A DNA stretch of 64,000 nt, from assembly GCA_964537195.1 (NCBI GenBank), contig CAZHYZ010000001.1, positions 5,522-69,521 of the forward strand. Direction: 5' to 3'. Within the stretch, counting starts at the first letter, position 1. Every line of letters starts with the position of its first letter. Positions 4,254 to 61,245 of this stretch are shown here, piece after piece. The notes beneath the pieces were generated by a model. The model ran no database searches. It saw nothing but the letters and a program-made list of their open reading frames with translations, and was not told the DNA's origin. A program made the translations under genes and the position numbers. Source of the stretch: an uncultured Methanosarcinales archaeon. Lineage in GTDB: Archaea > Nanobdellota > Nanobdellia > Woesearchaeales > GW2011-AR15.

Positions 4254-4286
4254 TGCTTTAATAAAACAGTGTCAATTTTTATATTT

Positions 4287-4625
4287 TTAGAAAAAATCTT
4301 TCAAATATCCTGTAAATGTTAATAAAACTATCAAAACCGTAGTGATAAAAAAGACAAATTTAGCTAAGGGAATTTTGAATACAACATCAATTAAGACATA
4401 TACTGCAGCATAACTTAAACCTGCAAGATGTGATAGAACGTATTTCTCAACAAAATTTATTTTTAATCTTATAATCAAAGGCAAAAAGGGCAAATAAACA
4501 AAAAACATGTATGTTAATGTTAGCACAAAACTGGCAACAAAACTATTTAATAACAAACTTATAATGAATACAGAGGCAAAACCAATTACAACACACTTAA
4601 ACAATTCTTTAATTTTATCTTCCAT
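4287..4625 (-). CDS. Small integral membrane protein
   Basis: 112 aa, three hydrophobic helices; overlaps the neighbouring gene by about 10 nt. Confidence 0.3.
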   Translation of the reverse strand: MEDKIKELFKCVVIGFASVFIISLLLNSFVASFVLTLTYMFFVYLPFLPLIIRLKINFVEKYVLSHLAGLSYAAVYVLIDVVFKIPLAKFVFFITTVLIVLLTFTGYLKDFF

Positions 4626-22362: not shown

Positions 22363-23592
22363 ATGAATATTAATTTGTCCAGCGAGCTTACCACATTGAG
22401 AGAGTTGGTGCTTGATCAAGATATTGTTGAAATCCCTACCGACTTAATTTATGGAGCTTTTGGTTTAGATACAAACACATACAAGCTATTAGATTTGAAT
22501 TCTTTTGTAATCATATTTAATTTGGCTAAAAAAGTTTTTATTGACCAATACAGGATTTGTGGGAACCCTAAATTGATTCATTCTGTTGATGCCACAGATT
22601 ATGTGAAAGAGATTGTTGATCAACTAATTCATTCTGGAGCATATTTTAATCCAGTTCCTTTATTTAATGTTACATTAGGGCATGATGTGGTAGAAGATGA
22701 TAAAGATAATTATAAATCAGAATTAAACACAATGGTAGAGCGCGGAGTGTTTTCAATTGATCAGTATCTTGCTATAAGAGCACTTACAAAAAATGATCAA
22801 GTTTTTCATCCACAAAAAAAAGAAGTAATAAAGTATGAAACAGAGCCAGAGAGATATCTGGAGAATTATGCAGATTATCTTAGGGGGTTGTTGGATGTTA
22901 ATATTTTAGAATATAACCTTACAAAAGCAACAGAAAACCACAACATGTCTTTTCCACTTCCCCCAAATACAAACCTCGACGTTATTAGTTTAGAGGATAT
23001 AGCTTTGCTTGGTTGTGCTGCAAAATCAGGAGATGCACTGGACAACATTAATACAGCCACTTCTTTAAGAAATAGTATTTATGTTCCTCTGAGAATCCAT
23101 GAACCGAGATATGAAATAGAAAATGGTTCAATAATAAACAGAAACATGCATTTTGAAGATTATATCAAACAAATAAGAAAATCTAGCATAGTTTTAGAAT
23201 TTTTGGGGGAATACATCTCAAATTCAGATGAAGACCCCATAAAGTATCAACTTACTTCTGCGTTGGTTATTAAGCTATATGAGGACACAGTAGAAGAATT
23301 AGAAAAAGAAATAAGGAGAACAGAAGTAGAACTTGACGATACAAAAGACCACAAAGATAAAATTGAAGAATTAAAATCTATGATTCCACCAAACATCAGA
23401 CTTAGTGTTATGAAAAGGAGATATGATTGGGCTTTAAATTTATTGCACGGAGACACAAATTATATGACACCAGAACTTAATGATGCTTTGTTATTCCATC
23501 TTGAAACCGTTCAAGGGGTGTTAGAAAACGTTCGGAAAAGACGCGGAAAGAGAATGTCGGTGTTCAAAGAAAGATCCCTCTTATCATATTAG
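22363..23592 (+). CDS. RelA/SpoT (Mesh1)-type HD-domain hydrolase homologue with an approximately 200-aa C-terminal extension of unknown function
   Basis: Three collinear motifs match the RSH hydrolase HD domain from memory: KLIHSVDATDYV (cf. ITHPLAVA), LGHDVVEDD (cf. LLHDVIEDT), LTKATENHNM (cf. KLADRLHNM); GC content is visibly higher than in neighbouring genes. Confidence 0.5.
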   Translation: MNINLSSELTTLRELVLDQDIVEIPTDLIYGAFGLDTNTYKLLDLNSFVIIFNLAKKVFIDQYRICGNPKLIHSVDATDYVKEIVDQLIHSGAYFNPVPLFNVTLGHDVVEDDKDNYKSELNTMVERGVFSIDQYLAIRALTKNDQVFHPQKKEVIKYETEPERYLENYADYLRGLLDVNILEYNLTKATENHNMSFPLPPNTNLDVISLEDIALLGCAAKSGDALDNINTATSLRNSIYVPLRIHEPRYEIENGSIINRNMHFEDYIKQIRKSSIVLEFLGEYISNSDEDPIKYQLTSALVIKLYEDTVEELEKEIRRTEVELDDTKDHKDKIEELKSMIPPNIRLSVMKRRYDWALNLLHGDTNYMTPELNDALLFHLETVQGVLENVRKRRGKRMSVFKERSLLSY

Positions 23593-23620
23593 TTACTGAA
23601 ACTAAGGATAAACAATAAAA

Positions 23621-25111
23621 ATGTATGGGAATGAACAACACGAATTAGTACTTGAGAATTTAATAGAAAGAATAGATCCTAATAGAGTAATAACTAATGA
23701 CTTTGGACATTTAGTGGTTTTTCATCCTGGAGAACCTGGTTATGATGAGGCAAGACCAAGAAAACCAAACGAACTGTCTCTCGCAAAATTAACTAGGAAA
23801 CTCTTTCTTGATGAGGACACAAAGGAGTTGAGGACAGAGTTAGATCTTAGTGAAGAGGAGAGAGAAGCACTCCTATATTTTACATATAAAAGAAAAGAAG
23901 CAGGAGCATTTAAGACAGCAATCATTATGGCTGACCTAATGGATTCACACAGGTTCCAGAAGGACGGTAGGAAACCACTGTCAGAGTTTTGGCAAAGCAA
24001 TTATATTGAGAACGAGGCCCAATTTCTTGATGTCTTAGTAAATGAAGTATTTAGAAGAGGAAACAGAGTTTTTGATCCCAGCAGAAGGATCGATTTTAAA
24101 GATAAGAAATACGTAGCCATTGATGTTTTAAAGGAATTTGTTAGGGGATTGAAGAACCAGGGAACAAAGTCTGTAAACCACAGGGTTCAGAAACTTATGA
24201 AAGAAGCCAGCAAGACACCCTACCACATGATGTTTCATTCTAGGGACAACATGCCAAGCAACAGAAATCATTTAGCAGTAATTTATGGTAGGGTGAAAGA
24301 GTCTAATAGTGAAAACAAGAAGCAATCTGCATATTGGGCAAGGGACATAAAACAGATGGAAGAAATAGCAACACTTAGAGACTTGGGAGTTGATTTGTCG
24401 CTCGAGGAGGTTCCTGGAGATATAAAACAGGAATATAGGCGTGCATTAAAAGCTGCTGAGAGATATCGAGACATGAAACCAGAGTATTATATTTATAAAT
24501 TAGATAATCGAACTAGGTTTGATGAGTTAATGGACAGATGGTATTATGGAATCGAGGACAGTTATGGAATAACTATTGTTTATTCTCACAGAGTCGGTCC
24601 TGAAGAAATTGAAGAAACAAGAGAATATTTCCATGATCTAGTTCTTTGTGACATAGTTCCTGGATCTTTTGATGACCACACCAAACAACCAAATAAACCT
24701 CAGGAAGTACAATTTAAGATTAAATTAAATAGATATTGGGTAGAAGAAGCATTACCTCCACATTTGTTTCATGATTTTTATGTACCAGACAATATTGAAA
24801 TTCAAGTCACTAGTTTACCAGACTTAGTACACAAATATCTGACCCCTGGGTTGGCAGAAACAGACTATAAAAAAAGGTTTATTACTGAAAAATTAGGTAT
24901 AAGCGAATCTAATCCAGATTTTCTGACCATATTTCAGACATTACAAGGAATATCTCCTGTTCAGGGAACAATGGAGTATTTTAGAGAACATAGAAATCAA
25001 CTAAGGAAAAATCTTTCTTATATTGGACGAGAGTCTCGGCATGAGTTACAAGAAGATTATGAAGCAGTTATCTTAGATTTATTAACAGCCGGAACATTTG
25101 ATATTAATTAA
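23621..25111 (+). CDS. Hypothetical protein, possibly a divergent RelA/SpoT-like nucleotidyltransferase (alarmone-synthetase-like)
   Basis: 496 aa, R/E/D-rich and the most GC-rich gene in the window; weak ordered motifs IYGRVKESNSENKK, YSHRVGPEE and EVQFKI resemble the RSH synthetase motifs GRxKxxxSxxxK, SLHTVVxGPEG and EVQIRT. Confidence 0.3.
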   Translation: MYGNEQHELVLENLIERIDPNRVITNDFGHLVVFHPGEPGYDEARPRKPNELSLAKLTRKLFLDEDTKELRTELDLSEEEREALLYFTYKRKEAGAFKTAIIMADLMDSHRFQKDGRKPLSEFWQSNYIENEAQFLDVLVNEVFRRGNRVFDPSRRIDFKDKKYVAIDVLKEFVRGLKNQGTKSVNHRVQKLMKEASKTPYHMMFHSRDNMPSNRNHLAVIYGRVKESNSENKKQSAYWARDIKQMEEIATLRDLGVDLSLEEVPGDIKQEYRRALKAAERYRDMKPEYYIYKLDNRTRFDELMDRWYYGIEDSYGITIVYSHRVGPEEIEETREYFHDLVLCDIVPGSFDDHTKQPNKPQEVQFKIKLNRYWVEEALPPHLFHDFYVPDNIEIQVTSLPDLVHKYLTPGLAETDYKKRFITEKLGISESNPDFLTIFQTLQGISPVQGTMEYFREHRNQLRKNLSYIGRESRHELQEDYEAVILDLLTAGTFDIN

Positions 25112-35513: not shown

Positions 35514-37424
35514 ATGGTCGACAAAATGAAAAAAAACATTTTATTTCGCTCTAGTATATTATTTGCATTAATGATATTTATATTGTTTTTTAACGCCAAC
35601 TCAGTAAGTGCTTTTGAAGGTTGTAAGATTGATTATTCAGTAGGTAATTCTGCGTGTTATGGTGTTTCAGACTGGGGTTCAACAGATATTAATCATTTAG
35701 TTAAAAAAGCAGCTAAGAACAACCCAGGAACAACATATATGGGCTGGTGTCCTTATGACGGCGCCAAACCTTATGCTACAAACGTAGTTGCTGCATGTGG
35801 TTGTCCTTCATTACCAAAACCAGCACCAGGAGATTTTTCAAGTGGAACCTGTAGTGCATGTGGAAACCCAGTTTATAGATATAATTCAGCTCCAACATGC
35901 GAAGACGAATGTTATCTTGGTCAGACAAAGTGTAGACCCGGAGATGATTTGTGGGTATGTGGAGATTTTGATTCAGATCCCTGTTTTGAATGGGGATTTG
36001 ATAAAAGTTGTGATTTTTCACATGAATCAGAATCATATTTTGTTTGTGAAAATGAAGATTCTGTAGAGTATAAAGAAGTAGGAGAAGGTTTTTGTAATGA
36101 TCAACCAGGATACAACGACTATTGTGATTCTACAGAAGACACTATTAGAGTAGATGAGACAGATTGTGGTTATACAACATGTGAAGATGAAGAATTTTGT
36201 CAAAATAATGATGTTTATTCTACTATAGAATGTGTTGAAAGAGGATGTAGAGAATCTACAGGAATATGTTATGAGCAAGAGACAAGTTTTACAGAGAAAG
36301 AACAGGAATGTGGAGAAGATACACAAACAGAAGATTATTGTGAAGGAGAAAACGTTGTTTATGAAATAGTAGATAGAGGATGTACGGAGAGTAATGGACA
36401 CGCTTCTTGTTTTGAAGACCCGGATAAAATTATTGTGGATGAATGTGGTCCTGACACTTGTACACCCTACACCGAGATGGATCCCTACACACAAGAATAT
36501 GTGTATGATGAAGAGAGCTGTATTGAAAATGGATATGCTTATTGCTCTCCAAATGACGAAGAAGTACATGATATGTGTATAACATCAGATATATTATGGC
36601 AGGCTTATTGTAATGGTCAGGATAGTGCATTTCAAGAGTTTAACTGTGGTCAGAAAACAGGTTGTTATGAATTTCAAGTAGAACAATGTTTCTATTGTGA
36701 AGATAACTATGGTAATTGTTATGAAAAGAATTGCACTGTTACAGGAGAAAAATATAGAACCTATTCATGTAGTTCAGGAGCATGCCAATATGAAGAAAAA
36801 GAACTTGTAGATGAAGACATGGACTTCAAAGATGATGAATATTGTGATGATTGTATAGATGTAGATAGAGATGGTATTTGTGATGACGTTGATAATTGTC
36901 CTGGAGTTAAAAATAGTAACCAAATAGATACAGATAAAGACGGTCTCGGAAATATGTGTGATAAGGATAGAGATAATGATGGATATTCAGAAAATGTAGA
37001 TTGTGATGACTGGAATCCAAACATAAATCCAGGAATGAAAGAGATTCCTAACAACAATATTGATGATGATTGTAATCCAGACACACCAGACTTTGTTGTA
37101 AATACTGCAAAAGAAGCATTGTATGTGGACATACAGATGACTGAAGAATATCTTAAAGCAGGAGAAGACGCAGTCATAATGGTCACAGTAAGAAACATGG
37201 CAAGCAAGGATATGGACAATGTTCAATTAACGGTTAGTATACCAAGATATCAAATATACCAAAGAAAACTATTATATGAAGTAGAATCAGGAGAGATAGT
37301 TTCAAGAATTTTTGAAATTAGGCTTCCAGAGAATTTGAAGACAGACTATGAATATTTAAGGGTTAGTGTTAGTAGCAACCAATACAAGAGAATAATCTAT
37401 AGAGAGATTAAGTTACCACAATAG
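35514..37424 (+). CDS. Secreted Cys-rich acidic surface protein with thrombospondin type-3 (Ca-binding) repeats and a C-terminal CARDB-like domain
   Basis: Signal peptide; about 60 Cys; DVDRDGICDDVDNCPGVKNSNQIDTDKDGLGNMCDKDRDNDGY fits the TSP3 DxDxDGxxDxxDNCP repeat; the C-terminal VTVRNMASKDMDNVQLTVSIP is CARDB-like. Confidence 0.7.
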   Translation: MVDKMKKNILFRSSILFALMIFILFFNANSVSAFEGCKIDYSVGNSACYGVSDWGSTDINHLVKKAAKNNPGTTYMGWCPYDGAKPYATNVVAACGCPSLPKPAPGDFSSGTCSACGNPVYRYNSAPTCEDECYLGQTKCRPGDDLWVCGDFDSDPCFEWGFDKSCDFSHESESYFVCENEDSVEYKEVGEGFCNDQPGYNDYCDSTEDTIRVDETDCGYTTCEDEEFCQNNDVYSTIECVERGCRESTGICYEQETSFTEKEQECGEDTQTEDYCEGENVVYEIVDRGCTESNGHASCFEDPDKIIVDECGPDTCTPYTEMDPYTQEYVYDEESCIENGYAYCSPNDEEVHDMCITSDILWQAYCNGQDSAFQEFNCGQKTGCYEFQVEQCFYCEDNYGNCYEKNCTVTGEKYRTYSCSSGACQYEEKELVDEDMDFKDDEYCDDCIDVDRDGICDDVDNCPGVKNSNQIDTDKDGLGNMCDKDRDNDGYSENVDCDDWNPNINPGMKEIPNNNIDDDCNPDTPDFVVNTAKEALYVDIQMTEEYLKAGEDAVIMVTVRNMASKDMDNVQLTVSIPRYQIYQRKLLYEVESGEIVSRIFEIRLPENLKTDYEYLRVSVSSNQYKRIIYREIKLPQ

Positions 37425-37548: not shown

Positions 37549-38904
37549 ATGAAAAAAACAATGTTTGTGCTAGTAACATTCGTTATAGCCATACTAACTT
37601 TGTATTCAGCATTTGCTGACTCTCAGGAGTGTATAGACTGCTGCGGAGGAGGTCCATGTGATTCTGATCCAGCTGAAACACCAACGTTGGATATAGAGAC
37701 ATGTACAGTGGAGATAAACGATATTCCTTTAGAAGAAGACGTTGTATTAAACGAGGTCTTTGAAAGAGGAGAAGATCTTGAAATATTTGTTAGATTTCAA
37801 TCAAATCAGGACGCAGAGGATGTCCAGGTCATGGTATTTCTAACAGGATATCACAGATCAAAATACACAGATGATATATCTGATATGACATCAACTTTTG
37901 ATATCGAAGCAAACGACGGTATCCACAAGTATCTAGAATTAAGACTACCAGATGATTTCAGAGTGGATTCAGAAGATAGACTTAAAATAAGAATTGTTAT
38001 ATCTGATAAATACTCTACAACATATATTAAGGATTACAATATTAGAGTAGAGCCAAAAGACCATAACATAGTCATACAAGATATTCTATTAGATCCTTCA
38101 ACAAGAGTTCAGGCAGGAAGAGCTTTGTTCTCAAGCGTTAGAGTTAGAAACATGGGAGATGAAGACGAAGAAAGCATAAAAATTACAACTTCGATACCAG
38201 CTCTTGATGTTAAAGCAACAGAATATATTGATGAGCTTGAGTTTGACGAAGCAACAACCTCAGAAGACATGTTCTTAAGAATTCCAACATGTGCTGAACC
38301 AGGAGAATACGTTGTTAAAGTCACAGTTGATTATGCTGATGGAGACGAACTAGTAACAAAACAAACCAAAATAGAAGTTACAGAAAACCCAGAATGTCAA
38401 CTAATAGATGGTAGAGACGATAAAACAGTTGTTACTGTACCTGGAAGGCAAGATGTTATTAAAGGCACATCAGGAACAGTTTATCCAATTATATTGGAAA
38501 ACAGAGGAGTTACTGATAGATCTTATGAATTGTCAGCATCAGGATTAGATGCCTGGGCAACATACAGATTTGAGCCAGGAACGGTTGTTATTGTCAGAGC
38601 CGGAGAAATGAAGACAGCATACTTATATATTACACCAAAAGAAGAAGCTTCTGAAGGTGAGAAAGTCTTCATGGTAAATGTTGAAACACAAAACGACCAG
38701 AAACAAATTGGTCTTACAGCTAACGTAGTAGCAGGAGAAGCACCATCACCACTAGGAGATCTTGGAGATTTGAAAAGACCTCTTGAAATAGGTTTGATAG
38801 TGTTAGTAGTCTTGCTAGTAGTACTTGGCTTAGTAATTGGTTTCAGCAAAATGAAAGGCGAAGGCGAAGAGCCTGATGAAATATCAGGACAAACCTACTA
38901 TTAA
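37549..38904 (+). CDS. Surface protein with signal peptide, CARDB-like domains and a C-terminal TM anchor
   Basis: N-terminal signal; CCGGGPC motif; a repeated VRVRNMGDEDEESIKITTSIP pattern; the C-terminal hydrophobic helix LIVLVVLLVVLGLVIGF followed by a charged tail. Confidence 0.6.
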   Translation: MKKTMFVLVTFVIAILTLYSAFADSQECIDCCGGGPCDSDPAETPTLDIETCTVEINDIPLEEDVVLNEVFERGEDLEIFVRFQSNQDAEDVQVMVFLTGYHRSKYTDDISDMTSTFDIEANDGIHKYLELRLPDDFRVDSEDRLKIRIVISDKYSTTYIKDYNIRVEPKDHNIVIQDILLDPSTRVQAGRALFSSVRVRNMGDEDEESIKITTSIPALDVKATEYIDELEFDEATTSEDMFLRIPTCAEPGEYVVKVTVDYADGDELVTKQTKIEVTENPECQLIDGRDDKTVVTVPGRQDVIKGTSGTVYPIILENRGVTDRSYELSASGLDAWATYRFEPGTVVIVRAGEMKTAYLYITPKEEASEGEKVFMVNVETQNDQKQIGLTANVVAGEAPSPLGDLGDLKRPLEIGLIVLVVLLVVLGLVIGFSKMKGEGEEPDEISGQTYY

Positions 38905-42194: not shown

Positions 42195-42605
42195 TTAATC
42201 CCTTGAAACGGAATATAAAGCTTTTAGTGCAACAACAGCTGCTCCTGGAGCCACAAATAAGGTAATGTTTGCCAAGAGAGGATTAATAAAGTTAAGCCAT
42301 TCTCCAATGACAGGCACCAAATTTACTAGTTGTGTTAGAGTTACTGAAAGAGCGTTTGCACTTACCATGAATGTCAAGCTGGCAAGCAAATAATTTGAAA
42401 CTTCCTTCTCAGTTATGTTTAATAATCCAACCACAATACCAAGTGCCCCTAACATCCAGAATATTCCACCAGTCAATGCAGACACTACAGCAATTATTAG
42501 TCCAAGAACAAAAGACCATGGACCAATCTTTCTCATTAAACCGTCTTCTTCTAAGGGTAATTCTTCTTCCTTTTTTTCTTTTTTAGCCATAAACTCCACC
42601 CCCAC
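42195..42605 (-). CDS. Integral membrane protein (hypothetical)
   Basis: 136 aa, acidic N-terminus then 3-4 TM helices. Confidence 0.4.
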   Translation of the reverse strand: MGVEFMAKKEKKEEELPLEEDGLMRKIGPWSFVLGLIIAVVSALTGGIFWMLGALGIVVGLLNITEKEVSNYLLASLTFMVSANALSVTLTQLVNLVPVIGEWLNFINPLLANITLFVAPGAAVVALKALYSVSRD

Positions 42606-42661
42606 AATATACTATTCTAAGAGAAGTTTATATAAAAATGTTTTCATTTAAGAGTAGAAAA

Positions 42662-42827
42662 TGGGGACACAGGGAATTTCACATATAAAGAAATAAACTT
42701 TATATGATTTGAACCCCGATCTAGCGGTCACTTCCTCGGAACGACTGACCGCGCTTAATTCATCGTCTTTCGACTCATCGCTCCATGACTGGAGCCGCTT
42801 ATACTAGCCAGGTTGTACTATGTCCCC
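42662..42827 (-). tRNA. tRNA-Trp(CCA) with two introns (about 60 nt after position 37; about 32 nt between T-loop and 3' T-stem)
   Basis: Hand-folded on the minus strand: acceptor GGGGACA/TGTCCCC (7 bp perfect) plus discriminator A; U8A9; D-stem GUAC/GUAU; anticodon stem AGCGG/CCGCU with loop CUCCAGA; T-stem CGGGG/CCCUG with consensus loop UUCAAAU; mature length 74 nt. Intron 2 forms the perfect hairpin CATATAAAG/CTTTATATG. Confidence 0.6.
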
Positions 42828-42861
42828 TTGAAAAGTAAGAAAAATATAATGTTTAAAAAGT

Positions 42862-44538
42862 TTATTTATCTTTATCGATTATATAGTCAGGGACGATGAT
42901 GAAATCAATATCTTCTCTCTGAAAATAATTTATTTTTTCTTTTAACTCCTTATCCAATATATCAATCTCAGATGAGTTGTAGGGATTAAATTTTTTCCAA
43001 GCTTGTTTTATGGGGTAAATAACAACTACGGGATTATTATGTTTTGTTTGTCTGACAAGTGAATTCACATACTTAACATAGTCTTCCATATGTATCCATA
43101 AATTTTTGTTTTGAAAGAAGAAGTTTGGAGGATAATCTTCCTTTTGGATGTCTCTCTCTGTGCTGTAGAAAAATGCATGTGGAACAATTATATCTATCCC
43201 ATTCTGATTCAGCCAGTTAGTTACTTCTTTAACCCCGTCATATGTAATGTTGTTTCCATATCCTCCAAAAGTTTCTGTTAATGTGTATGGTTTATTGTAG
43301 ATTCTTTTTGCAGAAGACGCGATATTTGGAGTAATTCTTTTTTCATCAAATTTGGCTATATCATCTGTACCCAAAACATCAAAATATTTCAGGTGAGCAA
43401 ACAAATCTCCTTCTGCAGACACAACACCATATAGATTTTCTTCATTTAGCAAATGTCCCGTTAATAAAGTGTTATGAGAAGAAGTCCAATTATGTAATGT
43501 CTGAAAATAACTCTTAGAGTATCTCTCTGTCAACACTTCAAAATAATCTGCTTTTATTTTTTCAGAAATCTCGTTTTCATCGACCCAGATATAATTAATA
43601 TAATCTCTCATATCATATTCTTTTTTTCCCTCAAATATCTCTTCAAATGAATCTGTCCAGGGAATTGCTCCCTCTTCATCATAATTATAAGAGCTATAGA
43701 ATCCAGGCTCATCTGTAAAAAATCCTACAACAGTATTGCCGAAATAATTACAGAATCTCGTATAATACTCTTCATGGGTGATTTCAATAAACTTGGAGCC
43801 AGTCCTTGGGTTTAATACATCGACATATTTGTCTTTGGAATATTCAGTTTCAAAATGTGAAAAATCTTGATAAAAAATATATTTAGTAATCTTGTCCTCT
43901 ATCAAAGAGAAATCACATGACAAATCAGAACAGTATCTGTTTTTAACATTTCTGGTAGAATTATCTTTTGGAACAATTACGGAGACAATTTTTCTTACTG
44001 GATATTCCTGGCTTTGTATTAGTGTGAAATTCTTCTCTTTTATTTTTATTCTTTTCAAGTTTTTTGCAATTAATTCTGGGTCTTGATCAAGTACTTTGTC
44101 TTTGGCTCTTCCACTTGGCCAATCAATATCATCATAAATCCAAACTTTCATATCTCTTTTTTTCAGTTCTTTAAGTGCATGACCTACAAAATAAAACCAT
44201 TCTTCTGATAAATACTCTTGTTCAAGACCTATTCTTGCGTGTATTATTACTTCTTTTATACCCACAGAAGCCATTAATTGTATTTGTCTGGTAATTTCAT
44301 TTTTTGTTAGATTTCCGTTCCAAAACCAGAAAGGTATTATTTTTGAGGGAGTATAGTTCATAGAAACCACCAGTTCCTGGCTTTTGTTTGATTGATAATC
44401 AGATAACTTAAGATCTTTGTATCTAAGAGTTGTATTTTCTTTTGTATTTATTTTAAAATGATATATGTTTATTATCAGAATGAGGATTATAAATAGATAA
44501 ACTCCTAAGAAGAACGTCTTGTATCTTTTTTGTATCAT
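42862..44538 (-). CDS. Membrane-anchored extracellular protein, putative glycoside-hydrolase-like TIM barrel
   Basis: N-terminal TM anchor, 558 aa; KEVIIHARIGLEQEY and VWIYDDIDWPSG segments suggest a GH-like (beta/alpha)8 fold; the assignment is tentative. Confidence 0.3.
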   Translation of the reverse strand: MIQKRYKTFFLGVYLFIILILIINIYHFKINTKENTTLRYKDLKLSDYQSNKSQELVVSMNYTPSKIIPFWFWNGNLTKNEITRQIQLMASVGIKEVIIHARIGLEQEYLSEEWFYFVGHALKELKKRDMKVWIYDDIDWPSGRAKDKVLDQDPELIAKNLKRIKIKEKNFTLIQSQEYPVRKIVSVIVPKDNSTRNVKNRYCSDLSCDFSLIEDKITKYIFYQDFSHFETEYSKDKYVDVLNPRTGSKFIEITHEEYYTRFCNYFGNTVVGFFTDEPGFYSSYNYDEEGAIPWTDSFEEIFEGKKEYDMRDYINYIWVDENEISEKIKADYFEVLTERYSKSYFQTLHNWTSSHNTLLTGHLLNEENLYGVVSAEGDLFAHLKYFDVLGTDDIAKFDEKRITPNIASSAKRIYNKPYTLTETFGGYGNNITYDGVKEVTNWLNQNGIDIIVPHAFFYSTERDIQKEDYPPNFFFQNKNLWIHMEDYVKYVNSLVRQTKHNNPVVVIYPIKQAWKKFNPYNSSEIDILDKELKEKINYFQREDIDFIIVPDYIIDKDK

Positions 44539-52306: not shown

Positions 52307-52759
52307 ATGACAAACCATTCAAAGAAAGAAATTTATATAACTCTTCTATTACTATTTATTTATATGAAAAGATATACCAAAGAACAACTGATTTTTTACC
52401 TTCAGAAATTAGCTAAGAAACTAAAGGCTACCCCCACAACAAAAGAGATGGATAGTTATAAGAAATTTCCTTCCTCTGGAACCTATTATGTGAGGTTTGG
52501 TTCGTGGAATAAAGCACTAAAAAAAGCGGGACTAAAACTCAATATTAAAACGAAATATACGAAAGAAGAACTTAAAGAGAATCTTAGATTACTTACCAAA
52601 GAACTTGGTCGCGTTCCAAAATCATCAGATTTAAAAAATAAGAAATGGGCAGCTTCCTACGCCACATACAGAAAATACTTCGGGAGCTGGAAAAAAGCAC
52701 TGAGAGCAGCAAAACTAAACCAACTTAGTTTCATTAATCTTAAATCTTTCTCCAAATAA
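52307..52759 (+). CDS. Tandem-repeat protein (two approximately 50-aa repeats; resembles the archaeal homing-endonuclease-associated repeat)
   Basis: Repeat 1 YTKEQLIFYLQKLAKKLKATPTTKEMD...YYVRFGSWNKALKKAGL and repeat 2 YTKEELKENLRLLTKELGRVPKSSDL...YRKYFGSWKKALRAAKL. Confidence 0.45.
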   Translation: MTNHSKKEIYITLLLLFIYMKRYTKEQLIFYLQKLAKKLKATPTTKEMDSYKKFPSSGTYYVRFGSWNKALKKAGLKLNIKTKYTKEELKENLRLLTKELGRVPKSSDLKNKKWAASYATYRKYFGSWKKALRAAKLNQLSFINLKSFSK

Positions 52760-52798: not shown

Positions 52799-54571
52799 AT
52801 GGAATATAAACAGCTTGTTGAATTATATGAAAAGCTCGACAGCACTTCAAAAAGGCTTGAAATGACTTATTATGTTTCTCGGTTCATAGAAAAGATAGAT
52901 GTAGAGGATTTACCTAGAATCATGTTACTCATACAAGGCAAAATATTCCCAGATTGGCAAGACAAAAAGATTGGAATGTCATCTAATCTAGTTATTAAAT
53001 GTATAAACAAAGCAACAGGGATTTCTGAAAAGGAAATCAAAAGAGAGTGGAAAAAAGAAGGTGATTTAGGGACTGTTGCAGGAAAATTAATAAAAAAAAG
53101 AAAGCAAGCTTCTCTTTTTCCTAAAAAACTTACTGTAAAGAAAGTCTTTGACAGTTTACAGAGTCTATCCTTAATGAAAGGAAGAGGTAGCACAAGCAGG
53201 AAGACAGATCTTGTTGCAGAACTTCTGATATCAGCAAGTCCAAAAGAGGCAAAGTATGTTACAAGGACTGTTCTGGACAAATTAAGATTGGGGATAGGTC
53301 GCGGAACAATTAGAGATTCCTTGGTTTGGGCATTTTTTTCAGATAAATTGGATCTTGAGTATGATGAAAAAGAAAATGACATTTCTCTTTCAGACGAGAA
53401 AAGAGATCAACATAACCAAATATTAGAAAAAGTACAGCATGCTTATGACCTTACAAATGACTTTGGCAAAGTTGCAAATAAATTAAAAAAAGGCGGTTTA
53501 GAAGAACTTGAAGAATTAAGTATTGAAGTAGGTAAGCCAATAAATGTAATGCTTTTCCAGAAAGTAGACACAGTTGAAGAGGCGTTTGAGACAGTTGGAA
53601 AGCCTGCTGCTTTTGAATATAAATATGATGGTTTTAGATTACAGATTCACAAAAACAAAGACGAGATTAAACTATTTACAAGACGTTTGGAAAATGTTAC
53701 TGAACAATTTCCGGATATTGTCTCTGCTTTAAAAGAAGCAATAAAAGTTGATTTCTGTATTATTGATGGTGAAACAGTTGGATTTAATCCTAAAAATGGA
53801 GAGTATTTACCCTTCCAGAAAATCTCTCAAAGGATTAAGAGAAAATATGATATAGAAACCATGTCAGAAAAATTCCCTGTAGAGATAAATTTGTTTGATA
53901 TACTTTATTATAGAGACAAGAATGTGATAAAAGAACCATTTAGAAAAAGGCGTGAATTTTTGAAAAAATCAATTAAAGAAATCCAGAAAAAGGTTGTTCT
54001 TGCAAAACAGATAATAACAGACAATATTGAAGAAGCACAAAAATTCTATGAAGAATCTCTAGCACTGGGAGAGGAGGGATTAATGGCTAAAAACTTGGAA
54101 GCTGAATACAAACCAGGATCTCGTGTTGGTTATGGTGTAAAGATTAAATCTATTATGGAACCACTTGATTTAGTAATTGTTGCAGCAGAATATGGAGAAG
54201 GCAAACGCTCCGGTTGGTTAACTAGCTTTTATTTAGCGTGTTCTGATAATGGCAACCTAAAAGAGATAGGGAAGGTCTCCACAGGATTGAAAGAGCTACA
54301 GACAGAGGAAGAAACCTCATTTAAAGATATGACCGACTTACTAAAACCACATATTACTAAGAGCACAGGTAAACATGTTGAGATAGTGCCAAAGATAGTG
54401 ATTGAAGTAGGTTACGAAGAGATACAGAAATCAACTAAGTATGATTCTGGATATGCCCTAAGGTTTCCCAGATTTTCTAGGTTAAGGACAGATGAGAAAA
54501 CTGTTGAAGATATTAATTCTTTGAAAGAGGTAGAAAGACTATATAAAAACCAGAGAGGACGTAACAAATAA
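52799..54571 (+). CDS. lig: ATP-dependent DNA ligase
   Basis: KxDG adenylation motif (EYKYDGFRLQIH), downstream NTase and OB-fold motifs; 590 aa. Confidence 0.9.
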   Translation: MEYKQLVELYEKLDSTSKRLEMTYYVSRFIEKIDVEDLPRIMLLIQGKIFPDWQDKKIGMSSNLVIKCINKATGISEKEIKREWKKEGDLGTVAGKLIKKRKQASLFPKKLTVKKVFDSLQSLSLMKGRGSTSRKTDLVAELLISASPKEAKYVTRTVLDKLRLGIGRGTIRDSLVWAFFSDKLDLEYDEKENDISLSDEKRDQHNQILEKVQHAYDLTNDFGKVANKLKKGGLEELEELSIEVGKPINVMLFQKVDTVEEAFETVGKPAAFEYKYDGFRLQIHKNKDEIKLFTRRLENVTEQFPDIVSALKEAIKVDFCIIDGETVGFNPKNGEYLPFQKISQRIKRKYDIETMSEKFPVEINLFDILYYRDKNVIKEPFRKRREFLKKSIKEIQKKVVLAKQIITDNIEEAQKFYEESLALGEEGLMAKNLEAEYKPGSRVGYGVKIKSIMEPLDLVIVAAEYGEGKRSGWLTSFYLACSDNGNLKEIGKVSTGLKELQTEEETSFKDMTDLLKPHITKSTGKHVEIVPKIVIEVGYEEIQKSTKYDSGYALRFPRFSRLRTDEKTVEDINSLKEVERLYKNQRGRNK

Positions 54572-54761: not shown

Positions 54762-54799
54762 AAATCTTTTTTAAACTCTTATTTATTCTTATCTTGAGT

Positions 54800-54883
54800 G
54801 CCCTCATAGCTCAGCGGTAGAGCGACAGTCTCGTAACTAGCCAAGAAAACTGTAGGTCGGGAGTTCAACTCTCTCTGAGGGCT
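54800..54883 (+). tRNA. tRNA-Thr(CGU) with a 12-nt intron at the canonical position
   Basis: Acceptor GCCCUCA/UGAGGGC plus discriminator U; D-stem GCUC/GAGC; anticodon stem ACAGU/ACUGU, loop CUCGUAA; T-arm GGGAG-UUCAACU-CUCUC; intron ACTAGCCAAGAA at 54836-54847. Confidence 0.75.
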
Positions 54884-54888
54884 TGAAA
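54873..54888 (+). repeat. Direct repeat copy 1 (CTCTGAGGGCTTGAAA) spanning the tRNA-Thr 3' end
   Basis: A 16-nt exact match to 54956-54971. Confidence 0.6.
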
Positions 54889-54955
54889 ATGTACTCTTCT
54901 TATGAATAGTACGTTCCTTTGGTTTCTAACCTTTGAAAAGGTTAGGTTTAAATCG

Positions 54956-54971
54956 CTCTGAGGGCTTGAAA
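54956..54971 (+). repeat. Direct repeat copy 2 (CTCTGAGGGCTTGAAA): duplicated tRNA-Thr 3' end, att-like
   Basis: An exact 16-nt copy of the T-stem/acceptor/discriminator plus trailer, 83 bp downstream; abuts the ATG of the next ORF. Confidence 0.6.
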
Positions 54972-57171: not shown

Positions 57172-60100
57172 ATGAAATCCACAAAAAAATCTCAGATATC
57201 TTTATTTCTTATAGTGGGCTTGGTTTTGTTATTAGTTGTGTCCCTATTTGTAGTTGTAAGAATAAATATGAAGCGAGCAGATGTACAACAAGTTAAACAA
57301 GAAAGTATTACTTTTCAAAATCTTGAAGAAGATGCAGGATTGTATGTTGAAGATTGTATTGAGCAATCTGTTTTTGAGGGTATAGAGAATTATGGTCTTG
57401 ATTCACCAGGCATTCTTGAAGTATATGTAGGTGAACAGATTATGATTTGTACAGATGAGTTTAAGATATATGAGAACATAGCAGAGATATCTGAGGAAGA
57501 ACCAGTTGTCAATGTTGAGATTAATGACGATATAATTAATTTTAATATAGATTATCCAGTAATTTTTTCAAAAGGCGAAGAACAATTCAGATTAAAAAAA
57601 TTCAGCTATAGTTTTAGGACTAACACCTTAATTGATTCTGACGGCGGCATAATTGAAGAAGGCACAGTATATACAACAGAAGATGGAAGATTGAATCTTT
57701 ATTTTTCTGACGATACTACAGTAACAAAAGACGGTGATAGTGTTGATGCTATTAGTTTGAATGTTGAGGACGAACATATAAATGGATTGTCTAACGCTGT
57801 TGTGATAGGTTCTGTTTTATATGAAGGATTGCCTCATGGAGCAAAATTTAATCCTGCCATTGAGGTTACAGTTGAGCTTGATGAAGAAGACATTCAAGGT
57901 CTAGATACTTCTGCATTGAAATTAGCATATTATGATGATGATGCAGATTTGTGGATAACATATCCTAGTTACTTTGATGAAGAAAACATGGTTGTTCGTG
58001 GTAAAGTTGATCATTTCTCTTTGATATCCGTATCAATGTGTGGTTCAAGCGTGGATGGACAAGCTACAATGCAAATGAGTACAGGAGAGAAGACCTTTCC
58101 TATGGAGTTTATTTTTAAAGATCCTTTTTTAGATGGAGAAGACAACGGATGTAATCCAACCCATTGGATGTATAACTCTCTAGAGGATGACGAACACGGC
58201 AGTTATGGTTTTCATTTGTTGCCTGAATTCATGTCTTCTTTTGAATGCGAGTATGATAATTATGATATGACTACTTACTATTATGGAGAAGAATTTCCTG
58301 TGGATGTATGTGATTTAAACTCTGAACATATAAGGGACTGGGATAATGATGATGATCCTGCTTATGAATTTGGTGTTGGAGAAATTAAGATTTCTTTTTC
58401 AGGTATAGAAAACCCTCAAGAATTTACACTTTTTGCAGAAATGTCATCTGATCAAAGTAAGGAAGTTTATACCTATTTGGAAAATAAATGTGTTTCTGCT
58501 GCAAGTGCTTTTGCAAAAGAAAAGATTAAAGAAAAGTTTGACTGGGTTACAGACGACTTAATTAGTGGAGATGGAATTAGAGACGGAGCAACCCTACATT
58601 GTACAGCAGACCTTAGTGGAACAGAAGGAGACACTCTTGATTCCTTTATGGGCAGGGTTGCTATTGGAAGTATTGGAGTGCAATTTAATGAAGGAAGTAT
58701 AACAGATAATTTAGAAAATCCTGATTCTATTTGTTGGGGTGGAGGAAAATGTTCACCAGTCCAGACAATAGAAGATTATGGTGATGGAGTTCCCCTTGTT
58801 CCTGGGGCTACAAAAACCAGATTAGGTTTCTTTGCAACTCCAAAAACATTTGGGTTTGCATTTGAGCAACAAGAGCCATTTCAAGTGCTAACTACTTATG
58901 AAGATATTGGAGCAATAAAAGATGATGTTGACCAAACTTTTCATCCTTTGCTTGGAGAAGGAGAATTCACTTTTTATCTGAGAACTGGAGGAGATGCATG
59001 TGTTAGTTATGAACCTAGTGGATTAGGTTGTTGTGTTAACTCACAACAAGTTGGAGATGAAACAGTCATAACTGACTGCCAAGGAAAGCCCGATGAGAAT
59101 GGGTGTCGGGGGGAATTTTTTGATAAAGATTGTCATGAATTGTCTCAGTGTATAGGGAAAACAAATGATTTAGAAGCATTTCTCATACAAGAAGAAGTAG
59201 AAGTTGAGAATTATATTCTTAAAAGTACACCTTCTAACATAATAACTATTGCTTCTCAGGCAGGTTCAACCCCCATTAAAAACACTATTGCTACAGATCT
59301 TCAAAAAACACAAGGAGAAACAGATTTAAGTGTGGCAAATGATGATGAGTACCTTCCTTTAGTTTATGACATGTCCAAAATTGAGGGAAGAGACTGGTCT
59401 TGTTCTGATACTTGTTTATGGACAATAAATGAAGAACCTGGAAAAATATTGAGCGAGACAACTCAGCAAAAAACAAAATCAACACCTGCCTCTCCGGGTA
59501 AATTGAGATCAGGAACAAACACAGTTAAAGTCAGGGTAGCAAACTTAAATGATGTTTGTATGTATGCTCGGGCATTTCTACAATTAAAAGGACAAGGAGT
59601 TACTTTCTTTGATATCTCTGAAGATGTTGATAGACCACTAACAGAAGATGATTGTAAGGCTGTTGATAGTTGTTGGGTAAGTAGACCAAACATAGAAAAC
59701 GGCGGATTTTGTGTAGTTAAGGGAGAGAATAACGGAGGTTATTGTTGTTTTGGTGCAGAAGAGGGCAATTATATGTACCCATATCCACACTTTGAATATT
59801 TTGGTGACCAAGAATGTAAAGCAAATGAAAACGCACGACCAATGGATGAGTTGAGCTGTACCACCCAGGGTGGAAAATGGACAAATGGTTTTTGTGTTAG
59901 AGCCGGAGAATACAATGCAGAATATTGTGTTGTTGGTCCTACAGAAGAGAAGAATTATGTACATTATGAACTTGCAGAGGAAAATATCTGTCCTTGTGAA
60001 GATGGAAGAGAATGTCTTGTTGCCAGTGAGTGTGAGGTTGTGGATGAATATCATTCTGTGAGATGTTCTCAGACAGAGCAAGGAGAGAGAATGTATTGTT

Positions 60101-61245
60101 GTGATAGAAAAGAACCTGAGGAAGAAGTTATTGAAGAAGAACCCGTAGGACAACTAAGTTGTTCAAGTGGTGGAAATGCAATTATAGATGATAACGGAAA
60201 AAGGTTCTCTTACTGTACTTATGGTTGTAATCCAGGTCAAGATGAATGTAAAGATGATTTGATGAGTTGTCAAAATTCTGTTTGTTATTCTGATTGTTCT
60301 ACTAACTGTGATTCACAAGCAGACGATTATACAGATTGTTTGTTCACATGTCAAGAAAATTGTCCAGAATGTTATTCTGAGATTGACTGTGAGAAATTCC
60401 CCAATTATGAAACCACAGAATGGAAATGTGAAGGTAGCCGAGTAGTTCCACAGACATGTGGGGATGGCAATCTTGATCCTAATGAAGAGTGTGATGACGG
60501 CAACAATGATGATGGAGACGGGTGTAATGCAGAATGTATATTAGAATATTGTGGAGACGGCCTTATTAACAATGTTGATGAAGAATGTGATGATGGTGAT
60601 ACTGTTGGTTTAAACGGTTGCTCAGATACTTGCCAAATAGAAGACGGTTGGACATGTGATGAAGAGCCGTCTGTTTGTGTTAAGGAAGAGGTGACTATTT
60701 CAGATGTTCAGAGAGATAAACTTGAAAAGGAATTTCCTGGAACACGCATTGGAAATGCACAAGTCTTATCACAAATGATAACTACTTGTTATGAGTTATA
60801 TTATAGCCAACTTAAATCTGATTTATATGAATGTTTAGATAATTATGCTCCAAATATTGGACAAATTAACCAATTATCTTCAGATGCTTGGCCTTATACT
60901 TTTACTACTTGTGCAGTCTCTGAACCATATTTACAATGTCTCTGTTATGTAAATGCCTTTGGTGTTGCATCAGGCTACGAGGTATCTACAGCTTATGGTC
61001 TTGTTGGAGTAGACAGTAATTTAGAAGAATATACTGGCGAAAGTCAATTAGCAACAGGAAAATATGTTATATTTGGTGATAGTGCTCCAGGCCACATAGC
61101 ATATATTGTTGGTCAAGATAGTGAAGGAGACTATCTTTATACAGATGCCAACTCAAATGATGTTGGTGGAGTAGTTTATGGTGGAAAACTGAAGAATCAT
61201 CCAAGAGGTCAAATAACATATATAAGCAAAGTACCAAGAACTTAA
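57172..61245 (+). CDS. Giant secreted/membrane-anchored Cys-rich protein with DUF4215-like Cys repeats and a C-terminal CHAP-like amidase/peptidase domain
   Basis: N-terminal signal-anchor; 1357 aa and acidic; CGDGNLDPNEECDDGNNDDGDGCNAEC and CGDGLINNVDEECDDGDTVGLNGCSDTC repeats; the C-terminal QCLCYVNAFG (Cys) and GDSAPGHIAYIVGQDSEGDYLYTDANSN (His) match the CHAP pattern. Confidence 0.7.
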   Translation: MKSTKKSQISLFLIVGLVLLLVVSLFVVVRINMKRADVQQVKQESITFQNLEEDAGLYVEDCIEQSVFEGIENYGLDSPGILEVYVGEQIMICTDEFKIYENIAEISEEEPVVNVEINDDIINFNIDYPVIFSKGEEQFRLKKFSYSFRTNTLIDSDGGIIEEGTVYTTEDGRLNLYFSDDTTVTKDGDSVDAISLNVEDEHINGLSNAVVIGSVLYEGLPHGAKFNPAIEVTVELDEEDIQGLDTSALKLAYYDDDADLWITYPSYFDEENMVVRGKVDHFSLISVSMCGSSVDGQATMQMSTGEKTFPMEFIFKDPFLDGEDNGCNPTHWMYNSLEDDEHGSYGFHLLPEFMSSFECEYDNYDMTTYYYGEEFPVDVCDLNSEHIRDWDNDDDPAYEFGVGEIKISFSGIENPQEFTLFAEMSSDQSKEVYTYLENKCVSAASAFAKEKIKEKFDWVTDDLISGDGIRDGATLHCTADLSGTEGDTLDSFMGRVAIGSIGVQFNEGSITDNLENPDSICWGGGKCSPVQTIEDYGDGVPLVPGATKTRLGFFATPKTFGFAFEQQEPFQVLTTYEDIGAIKDDVDQTFHPLLGEGEFTFYLRTGGDACVSYEPSGLGCCVNSQQVGDETVITDCQGKPDENGCRGEFFDKDCHELSQCIGKTNDLEAFLIQEEVEVENYILKSTPSNIITIASQAGSTPIKNTIATDLQKTQGETDLSVANDDEYLPLVYDMSKIEGRDWSCSDTCLWTINEEPGKILSETTQQKTKSTPASPGKLRSGTNTVKVRVANLNDVCMYARAFLQLKGQGVTFFDISEDVDRPLTEDDCKAVDSCWVSRPNIENGGFCVVKGENNGGYCCFGAEEGNYMYPYPHFEYFGDQECKANENARPMDELSCTTQGGKWTNGFCVRAGEYNAEYCVVGPTEEKNYVHYELAEENICPCEDGRECLVASECEVVDEYHSVRCSQTEQGERMYCCDRKEPEEEVIEEEPVGQLSCSSGGNAIIDDNGKRFSYCTYGCNPGQDECKDDLMSCQNSVCYSDCSTNCDSQADDYTDCLFTCQENCPECYSEIDCEKFPNYETTEWKCEGSRVVPQTCGDGNLDPNEECDDGNNDDGDGCNAECILEYCGDGLINNVDEECDDGDTVGLNGCSDTCQIEDGWTCDEEPSVCVKEEVTISDVQRDKLEKEFPGTRIGNAQVLSQMITTCYELYYSQLKSDLYECLDNYAPNIGQINQLSSDAWPYTFTTCAVSEPYLQCLCYVNAFGVASGYEVSTAYGLVGVDSNLEEYTGESQLATGKYVIFGDSAPGHIAYIVGQDSEGDYLYTDANSNDVGGVVYGGKLKNHPRGQITYISKVPRT

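Follow-up and report, generated by a model that had tools for sequence, protein, structure and literature searches.

Transfer RNA genes with several introns, or with introns at non-canonical positions, have been described from Thermoproteales, Nanoarchaeum, Korarchaeum, Methanopyrus and ARMAN (PMC4033280). The closest described case is the DPANN archaeon ARMAN-2, in which the T-loop of pre-tRNA-Cys is interrupted between positions 59 and 60 (59/60) and that of pre-tRNA-Pro twice, at 53/54 and 59/60 (Fujishima et al. 2011, PMC3239211); in vitro, the cognate endonuclease cleaved the 59/60 intron (PMC3239211). ARMAN-2 has an ε2 endonuclease; for other DPANN archaea, α4 enzymes bearing an "L3" loop have been reported and linked to increased tRNA gene disruption, in a study that predicted the tRNA genes of 46 archaea, including one Woesearchaeota genome; incomplete tRNA sets are on record for some DPANN and Asgard genomes (Kaneta et al. 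2018, PMC5829648). A second described system is the tRNA-Trp intron, which has a median length of 65 nucleotides (nt) (PMC4090602) and nests box C/D guides for C34 and U39 (PMC4090602, PMC11408192). In Euryarchaeota, the guide within pre-tRNA-Trp directs the formation of Cm34 and Um39 (Clouet-d'Orval 2001; Bortolin 2003; Singh 2004, summarised in PMC4090602, PMC11408192 and PMC7714728). Here we analysed a 64,000-nt stretch of archaeal DNA (the window; contig CAZHYZ010000001.1), in which positions 42662–42827 of the minus strand very probably hold a tRNA-Trp(CCA) gene, functional in its Woesearchaeota-type (DPANN) archaeal host and divided by an anticodon-loop intron and a T-loop intron into three exons of 39, 21 and 14 nt. 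Our literature search found no report on the structure of Woesearchaeota tRNA-Trp genes or on the kink-turn (K-turn) intron that they carry.

Read along the minus strand from 42827 to 42662, the locus specifies a 166-nt precursor, the 5′ part of which, GGGGACA-UA-GUAC-AACCUGGCUA-GUAU-A-AGCGG-CUCCAG, is followed by a 60-nt insert, while the 3′ part, A-CCGCU-AGAU-CGGGG-UUCAAA, is separated by a 32-nt insert from the terminal U-CCCUG-UGUCCCC-A. Exon 1 (42789..42827, tRNA positions 1–37) supplies the 5′ strand of the acceptor stem, the D arm, the 5′ strand of the anticodon stem and C32 U33 C34 C35 A36 G37. Exon 2 (42708..42728, positions 38–59) contributes the 3′ strand of the anticodon stem, the variable loop, the 5′ strand of the T stem and T-loop nucleotides U54–A59, and exon 3 (42662..42675, positions 60–73) contributes U60, the 3′ strands of the T and acceptor stems and the discriminator A73, all three exons lying on the minus strand. 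The parts assemble into a 7-bp acceptor stem (GGGGACA/TGTCCCC, with A73), a D stem (GTAC/GTAT), an anticodon stem (AGCGG/CCGCT) closing the loop CTCCAG|A, and, once the insert is taken out, the T arm CGGGG-TTCAAAT-CCCTG; the CCA end is not encoded. These stems and loops and both inserts had been listed in an earlier sequence-only reading of the locus, and all are present. From the doubly spliced sequence ARAGORN called a tRNA-Trp(CCA) with normal D, anticodon and T arms and with the length of 74 nt which that reading had foreseen. Its expectation that standard finders would miss the gene was likewise borne out: ARAGORN called no gene on the raw locus, and Rfam had no match there at the gathering threshold or at E ≤ 10, the scan of 42600–42900 at the latter level yielding noise alone, such as snoR21 on the opposite strand (E = 0.096), with no match to a tRNA or small RNA.

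The gene occupies the spacer between two minus-strand open reading frames (ORFs; 42195–42605 and 42862–44538), and its G+C content is 52–64% in the exons, 52% in intron 1 and 16% in intron 2, compared with 32% for the genome. The precursor folds at −62.5 kcal/mol (z = −5.2), and none of 200 shuffled sequences folded equally well. A motif of the bulge-helix-bulge (BHB) kind, for which the earlier reading had proposed a check, was found at each of the two junctions, strict at intron 2 and relaxed at intron 1.

The T-loop intron (intron 2; 42676–42707, minus strand; 32 nt, 16% G+C) lies at the non-canonical site 59/60 within a strict hBHBh′ motif, CGGGG - UUCA - [AA|U] - CAUAUAAAG-uuuauuu-CUUUAUAUG - UGAA - [AU|U] - CCCUG. 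Its central helix, UUCA/UGAA, consists of four Watson-Crick pairs between the 3-nt bulges AAU and AUU, and is flanked on the outside by the 5-bp T stem and on the inside by a perfect 9-bp hairpin, CATATAAAG/CTTTATATG, which has a 7-nt loop and forms the core of the intron. Archaeal BHB motifs are cut after the second nucleotide of each bulge. The canonical 37/38 case and the site naming used for ARMAN-2 (PMC3239211) both agree with this rule. No further copy of intron 2 was found in the window, which therefore gives no sign of a repeated mobile element.

For comparison, a degenerate 5′-exon pattern was scanned against one genome per species and returned at least 119 tRNA-Trp loci (designated by L numbers where they need to be told apart), nearly all of the listed ones being titled Woesearchaeota, Nanoarchaeota or DPANN. 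The counts given below are based on the 117 parsable genes, window included, among the matches listed. An intron at 37/38 only was found in 93 of the 117 genes and no intron in five; 12 genes combine the 37/38 and 59/60 introns, five the 37/38 and 53/54 introns, and two carry introns at all three sites. By site, 37/38 is thus interrupted in 112 genes (median intron length 60 nt), 59/60 in 14 and 53/54 in seven, and 19 of the 117 genes, or about one in six of the sampled Woesearchaeota tRNA-Trp genes, have an intron in the T arm. About 30 of the relatives' records (e.g. L003, L008 and L055), third-party assemblies including many "binchicken" isolates, are titled "uncultured Methanosarcinales archaeon"; their tRNA-Trp genes match those of Woesearchaeota records, as do the neighbouring genes where these were checked (L055), and the titles are probably wrong or placeholders.

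The comparison also fixes the position of the T-loop intron. Within the window alone, placements at 59/60 and 60/61 yield the same mature sequence. U60, however, is invariant in all 98 relatives that have no T-arm intron, and among relatives with the 59/60 intron the 3′ bulge has U as its third nucleotide throughout, whereas the 5′ bulge has U, A or C there. Because of the invariant U60 and this pattern of bulge variation, we place the splice site at 59/60 and not at 60/61; the latter was rejected on the U60 evidence together with the BHB geometry, and the second intron, which the sequence-only reading had put after position 60, has to be moved by one nucleotide. The mature T-loop so obtained, UUCAAAU, is identical to the intronless loop of 39 relatives that have it.

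The 59/60 site and its BHB architecture recur in 13 other tRNA-Trp genes and in one tRNA-Gly gene. The 59/60 introns range from 16 to 100 nt and have no obvious sequence similarity to one another, and the BHB core is kept in all of them. In a fixed-register alignment of this core, 97.4% of cells were paired, compared with 87.7 ± 1.6 in shuffles, in a design in which the T-stem pairs were required by the parser and the central-helix pairs were not; the pairing signal was lost when the partner strand was slid along. Compensatory changes were found in the central helix, from A57-U to G57-C in four sequences and from U55-A to C55-G in one. The 53/54 introns are also of the BHB type, with a 4-bp central helix UCUG/CAGR between 3-nt bulges.

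Several individual relatives deserve mention at this point. L052 and L082 have three introns each, at 37/38 (45 and 63 nt), 53/54 (22 and 19 nt) and 59/60 (32 and 31 nt), leaving between the last two a T-loop exon of 6 nt (UUCAAA). The T-loops of L072 (UCCGAAU) and L036 (UCCAAAU) have C in place of the near-universal U55, and in L072 the BHB central helix compensates for C55 (UCCG/CGGA). The tRNA-Gly case is a tRNA-Gly(CCC) gene in L025, a metagenome-assembled genome titled "Nanobdellati archaeon". It lies on the minus strand, about 4,500 nt into the reverse complement as counted from its 5′ end, and its insert at 59/60 measures 52 nt, with UUCA/UGAG as the central helix and CCGGG/CCCGG as the T stem. 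In this group, therefore, 59/60 introns are not confined to tRNA-Trp.

Presence and absence of the T-loop intron were compared among syntenic orthologues. A 136-aa membrane-protein ORF adjoins the tRNA gene, and its identity to the window's copy is 80% in L055, 75% in L046, 66% in L040 (archaeon GW2011_AR15) and 54% in L090. When the five syntenic tRNA-Trp genes were aligned, L055 was found to have a different, 41-nt intron at the T-loop site, whereas in L046, L040 and L090 the insert is missing to the nucleotide and the sequence is TTCAAATCCCTG, just as predicted for the ligated exons. A tRNA-Trp(CCA) gene with one canonical and one T-loop intron, as the sequence-only reading had proposed, thus agrees with the ARAGORN call after double excision, the two BHB motifs, the relatives and the absence of the insert in syntenic genes. 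A single metagenome scan gave one contig (L121), whose tRNA-Trp locus was identical to that of L055 in the stretch read, and an exact-protein look-up of the neighbouring GatE gave a single Logan contig of 3.9 kb (run SRR7048221) that ends short of the tRNA.

Compared with ARMAN-2, the window's group shares the DPANN affiliation, the sites 59/60 and 53/54 (both present in L052 and L082) and strict hBHBh′ motifs built from T-arm nucleotides. The two differ in the host tRNA (Cys and Pro versus Trp) and in lineage (ARMAN-2 versus Woesearchaeota); in addition, the 59/60 intron of the window has a strict BHB, whereas the ARMAN-2 tRNA-Cys intron has a relaxed hBH motif, and it coexists, unlike the ARMAN-2 introns, with a long structured intron at 37/38. 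Introns in the T-loop of DPANN tRNAs are therefore already known, and the Woesearchaeota tRNA-Trp gene is another case. The statement in the earlier reading that multiple and non-canonical introns are known mainly from Thermoproteales is out of date for the same reason, as ARMAN-2 has both 53/54 and 59/60 introns (PMC3239211). The Thermoproteales do resemble the window's group in having up to three protein-spliced introns per tRNA, recurrent non-canonical sites and BHB-type motifs (Sugahara et al. 2007/2008; PMC4033280, PMC4090602), and, as with the window's gene, their multi-intron genes are missed by simple tRNA finders. They belong, however, to another phylum, are thermophiles and use (αβ)2 endonucleases, and similar introns are common to several of their tRNAs, which points to transposition, whereas no obvious sequence similarity links the 59/60 introns described here.

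Two other ways of reading the locus would deny it the role of a tRNA-Trp gene. It might be a tRNA-Trp pseudogene whose T-loop had received an AT-rich palindromic insertion, from a small mobile element or through replication slippage, with another locus supplying tRNA-Trp. The foreign composition of intron 2 (16% G+C within exons of 52–64%) and the absence of the insert from close syntenic relatives would fit such an event, as would the duplications of tRNA 3′ ends starting in the T-loop, which show that recombination is active there in this clade. Moreover, the 64 kb of genome that are visible leave room for a second, simpler tRNA-Trp gene elsewhere, a point that also weighs against our own interpretation. 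Yet the insert has just the geometry of an EndA substrate, with a 4-bp helix to T-loop nucleotides 54–57, two 3-nt bulges and a helix abutting both, and its removal restores the invariant UUCAAAU loop. All stems are intact, neither the putative promoter nor the putative terminator is missing, the window holds the insert only once, and the same site and architecture are found with unrelated sequences and compensatory changes in 13 other species. We therefore regard a pseudogene as very improbable.

Still harder to sustain, and in our estimate next to negligible, is a tRNA-Arg(CCU) whose first intron would lie at 35/36 (…CUCC|AG…GAAG|UGACC…). ARAGORN in intron mode (-i) does make this call on the singly spliced sequences of the window, L055 and L040, from which the T-loop insert alone has been removed. 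No BHB is possible at the 5′ cut, however, as the four nucleotides 5′ of the bulge would include bases of the anticodon stem. Five intronless orthologues with the same exon pattern have an anticodon loop that reads CUCCAGA, and the anticodon is therefore CCA; in addition, the conserved antisense element UGGAGC pairs with GCUCCA, and a nested K-turn guide is the hallmark of the tRNA-Trp intron (PMC4090602). With both alternatives weighed, a twice-interrupted tRNA-Trp(CCA) gene accounts best for the locus.

The anticodon-loop intron (intron 1; 42729..42788, minus strand) is 60 nt long, lies at the canonical site 37/38 and has a relaxed BHB. In its central helix, CUCC/GAAG, three of four pairs form and C34 faces A, between the bulges AG|U and UG|A; the outer helix is the 5-bp anticodon stem, and the inner helix starts with a C-G pair and an A·A mismatch, followed by the 7 bp UGGAGCG/CGUUCCG. 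The GAAG strand on the 3′ side is kept in 56 of the 112 introns. Near the 5′ end of the intron, antisense element 1, UGGAGC (42780..42785, minus strand), is complementary to G31–A36 of the anticodon loop. In the run UGGAGC-G-AUGA, C34 faces a G which, counted upstream from the D-type box, is the fifth nucleotide (N+5), as the targeting rule of box C/D guides demands, and the pattern GGAGY-N-NUGA was found at exactly this spacing in 97 of the 112 introns.

Behind this element lies a K-turn module (42760..42778, minus strand), composed of AUGA (42775–42778), the hairpin GUCGAAAGAC (42765–42774) and GAUGA (42760–42764). In a box C/D guide the K-turn is made by a C-type box (RUGAUGA) and a D-type box (CUGA). 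The geometry of the module is that of a K-turn: the GA of the D-type box stands directly 5′ of a regular helix, and behind the helix come a 3-nt bulge (GAU) and then the C-type box's GA. The layout UGGAGC-N-(A/C)UGA, hairpin, (G/A)AUGA is widespread: the whole module was found in 91 of 112 relatives, and its hairpin comes in 81 distinct sequences; as to the D-type box, 86 have AUGA and nine the canonical CUGA. As the hairpin parser required three closing pairs, about 5% would be expected to pass by chance, compared with the 91 of 97 seen. For the two inner hairpin pairs, both sides have changed in 35 and 27 of 72 distinct rows, and the covariation score of the hairpin is 0.49, compared with 0.16 in shuffles. 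An assignment of the two GAUGA elements to box C and box C′ was tried and rejected, since they lie 10 nt apart, are separated by a fully paired hairpin, and the first of them is CUGA in nine relatives. The sequence-only reading had noted two CGATGA elements reminiscent of box C/D; they are present, but they make up one K-turn of a D-type and a C-type box, with no recognisable second box pair in the window.

A further antisense element, GCGGUCA (antisense element 2; 42746..42752, minus strand), is complementary to the last two intron nucleotides plus A38–C42 (7 bp, UG|ACCGC). Its covariation with positions 41–43 is weak (1.21, compared with 0.86 ± 0.09 for permuted exons), and UCGU stands where a D box would be needed; only a long-intron group of 20 genes has a UUGA box correctly spaced from antisense element 2. 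Antisense element 1, for its part, begins 3 nt into the intron, and no box C lies 5′ of it. A second box pair can thus not be recognised in the window. A search for guide complementarity to C34 and U39 had been proposed as a check. UGGAGC sets C34 at N+5; position 39, which is C in the window and not U, falls within the 7-bp complementarity to GCGGUCA. In the minimum-free-energy fold of the precursor (−62.5 kcal/mol) both antisense elements are paired in cis, whereas in the splicing-competent fold (−46.6 kcal/mol) UGGAGCG is in the inner helix of the BHB. UGGAGC(G) thus has two alternative partners, the anticodon loop and the 3′ part of the intron, and the guide and splicing conformers would therefore be mutually exclusive. 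The same is reportedly true of the guide and BHB conformers of euryarchaeal pre-tRNA-Trp.

By these features intron 1 resembles a reduced, single-K-turn form of the known tRNA-Trp box C/D intron. Like the euryarchaeal guide intron, it is about 60 nt long, interrupts tRNA-Trp at 37/38, has antisense elements flanking the K-turn boxes and places C34 at N+5 from the D-type box. The window differs in having one recognisable box pair, the order antisense–D–hairpin–C–antisense and a true stem instead of a short loop. It further differs in that the window has neither a 5′ box C nor a 3′ box D, the duplexes are of 6–7 bp, position 39 is C rather than U, and the host is a DPANN archaeon.

Guidance of C34 2′-O-methylation by intron 1 is plausible on these grounds. 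A possibility that we rate at somewhat below even is that both introns are spliced but the AUGA–hairpin–GAUGA module acts as an L7Ae-binding or structural element that helps or delays BHB folding, rather than as a methylation guide, and that UGGAGC is kept for the inner helix of the BHB. Such a role would suit the single K-turn of the window with no second box pair, the short duplexes and the pairing of UGGAGCG with the 3′ part of the intron as BHB inner helix, and Haloferax can grow without the guide and the intron (PMC11408192, PMC7714728). A folding role, however, needs no fixed spacing, and the base opposite C34 is exactly N+5 from the D-type box in 97 of 112 introns; that box varies among relatives, being AUGA in some and canonical CUGA in others, and the architecture parallels the experimentally proven euryarchaeal system.

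Several observations weigh against the interpretation of the gene as a spliced tRNA with a cis-acting guide, and are best taken together. The BHB at 37/38 is not strict, with C34·A in the central and A·A in the inner helix; the pairing statistics of the hairpin and T stem follow in part from the way the genes were parsed; the duplexes of the guide are short (6 and 7 bp), the 6-bp one at C34 falling below the length usual in guides; and one K-turn is recognisable, antisense element 2 having no D box in the window. In addition, EndA, RtcB, L7Ae, Nop5 and fibrillarin were not found in a Pfam scan of 60 window ORFs, and their presence in the genome is assumed. With a single K-turn and no second D box, the methylation-guide part of the interpretation is therefore much less certain than the splicing part.

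The observed anatomy, BHB geometry, conservation, covariation and presence/absence polymorphism suggest the following course of transcription, cleavage, ligation and methylation. The precursor would be transcribed from a TATA-like element 23 nt upstream and terminated at a T-run. Before splicing, the 60-nt intron would probably act in cis, its 5′ antisense element pairing with the anticodon loop beside the single K-turn, which would put C34 at N+5 for 2′-O-methylation by L7Ae/Nop5/fibrillarin. EndA would cut both BHB motifs after the second nucleotide of each 3-nt bulge, so that the relaxed BHB at 37/38 releases the 60-nt intron and the strict hBHBh′, built on the T stem and T-loop nucleotides 54–57, releases the 32-nt intron at 59/60. 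An RtcB-type ligase would then join the exons into the 74-nt tRNA, to which CCA would be added later.

Both of the signals named above can be located. The TATA-box-like element CTTTTTAAAC (42851..42860, minus strand) ends 23 nt upstream of tRNA-Trp position 1 and is a putative promoter. The 9-mer TTTTTAAAC occurs three times in the window, counting both strands, and two of these copies (42851–42859 on the minus strand and 54768–54776 on the plus strand) are spaced alike from the window's two tRNA genes, each ending exactly 23 nt ahead of the first tRNA base; TTTTTAAAC is probably the TATA box of this organism's tRNA promoters. At the other end, a T-run directly past the discriminator (42658..42661, minus strand) is a likely archaeal oligo-T terminator, judged by what is generally known of archaeal termination. 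A scan for bacterial-type promoters and terminators was uninformative, the host being an archaeon.

A more far-reaching proposal, which we put forward as doubtful, joins two ideas: that intron 1 is a natural minimal single-K-turn cis methylation guide (antisense, D box, stem-loop, C box, i.e. a "half-mer" box C/D RNA), and that the 53/54 and 59/60 introns were gained repeatedly and independently in this clade and could be scars left by site-specific recombination at the 3′ ends of tRNAs, or a safeguard against it. The half-mer form is otherwise reported mostly from engineered constructs. Repeated independent gain would be suggested by the unrelated sequences of the T-arm introns, their patchy spread across intron-1 classes and their presence or absence among syntenic orthologues. 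The recombination idea stems from the fact that the introns share the T-loop boundary at which duplications of tRNA 3′ ends begin (L007, L040, L068 and the tRNA-Thr of the window). A scan of viral contigs with the tRNA 3′ end, in search of an archaeal attP, gave six matches, about the number expected by chance, none of them convincing.

The duplications themselves take two forms in the tRNA-Trp relatives. In L007 (about 4009–4330, plus strand) and L068 (minus strand, downstream of the match at 1819–1857), an intronless tRNA-Trp gene is followed by two tandem repeat units of about 81 and 84 nt, each of which ends in a copy of tRNA positions 58–73 plus trailer and contains an inverted copy of the T arm (GGATTTGAAC). 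In L040 (AR15), a copy of positions 59–73 lies 80 nt downstream of the tRNA-Trp gene (about 4664–4760, plus strand). All three duplications begin in the T-loop, where the 53/54 and 59/60 introns are sited.

What these results mean is first of all practical, and concerns annotation. As ARAGORN and Rfam both miss the gene and about one in six of these genes has a T-arm intron, DPANN genomes annotated with such tools will seem to lack tRNA-Trp. tRNAscan-SE 2.0 looks for non-canonical introns by default, but Crenarchaeota/Euryarchaeota and Thaumarchaeota supplied the training data of its models (PMC8450103). As a compact natural experiment, the comparative set also shows how BHB introns come and go at two fixed sites of the T arm, and a DPANN lineage would join the Euryarchaeota in using the tRNA-Trp intron as a methylation guide, here reduced to a single K-turn. 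The current understanding of tRNA splicing is unchanged.

The other tRNA gene of the window is a tRNA-Thr(CGU) (54800–54883, plus strand) with a 12-nt intron at 37/38, which default ARAGORN reported as "tRNA-???" and the intron mode resolved. By hand its intron fits a bulge-helix-loop type of motif, in the central helix of which C34 again faces A. The final 26 nt of the gene, from G53 to the 3′ end plus a 5-nt trailer (54863–54888), are repeated 83 nt downstream at 54946–54971 (plus strand) with 88% identity. This looks like an att-type duplication or an integration remnant; the second copy is unable to replace the T stem of the first.

Elsewhere in the window, a 150-aa protein of homing-endonuclease-associated HNH repeats (PF18780, E = 1.7e-36) is encoded at 52307–52759 (plus strand), directly upstream of an ATP-dependent DNA ligase at 52799–54571 (plus strand). 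Large ORFs without a Pfam match at E ≤ 1e-5 comprise one of 1357 aa at 57172–61245 (plus strand) and others at 35514–37424, 37549–38904 and 22363–25111.

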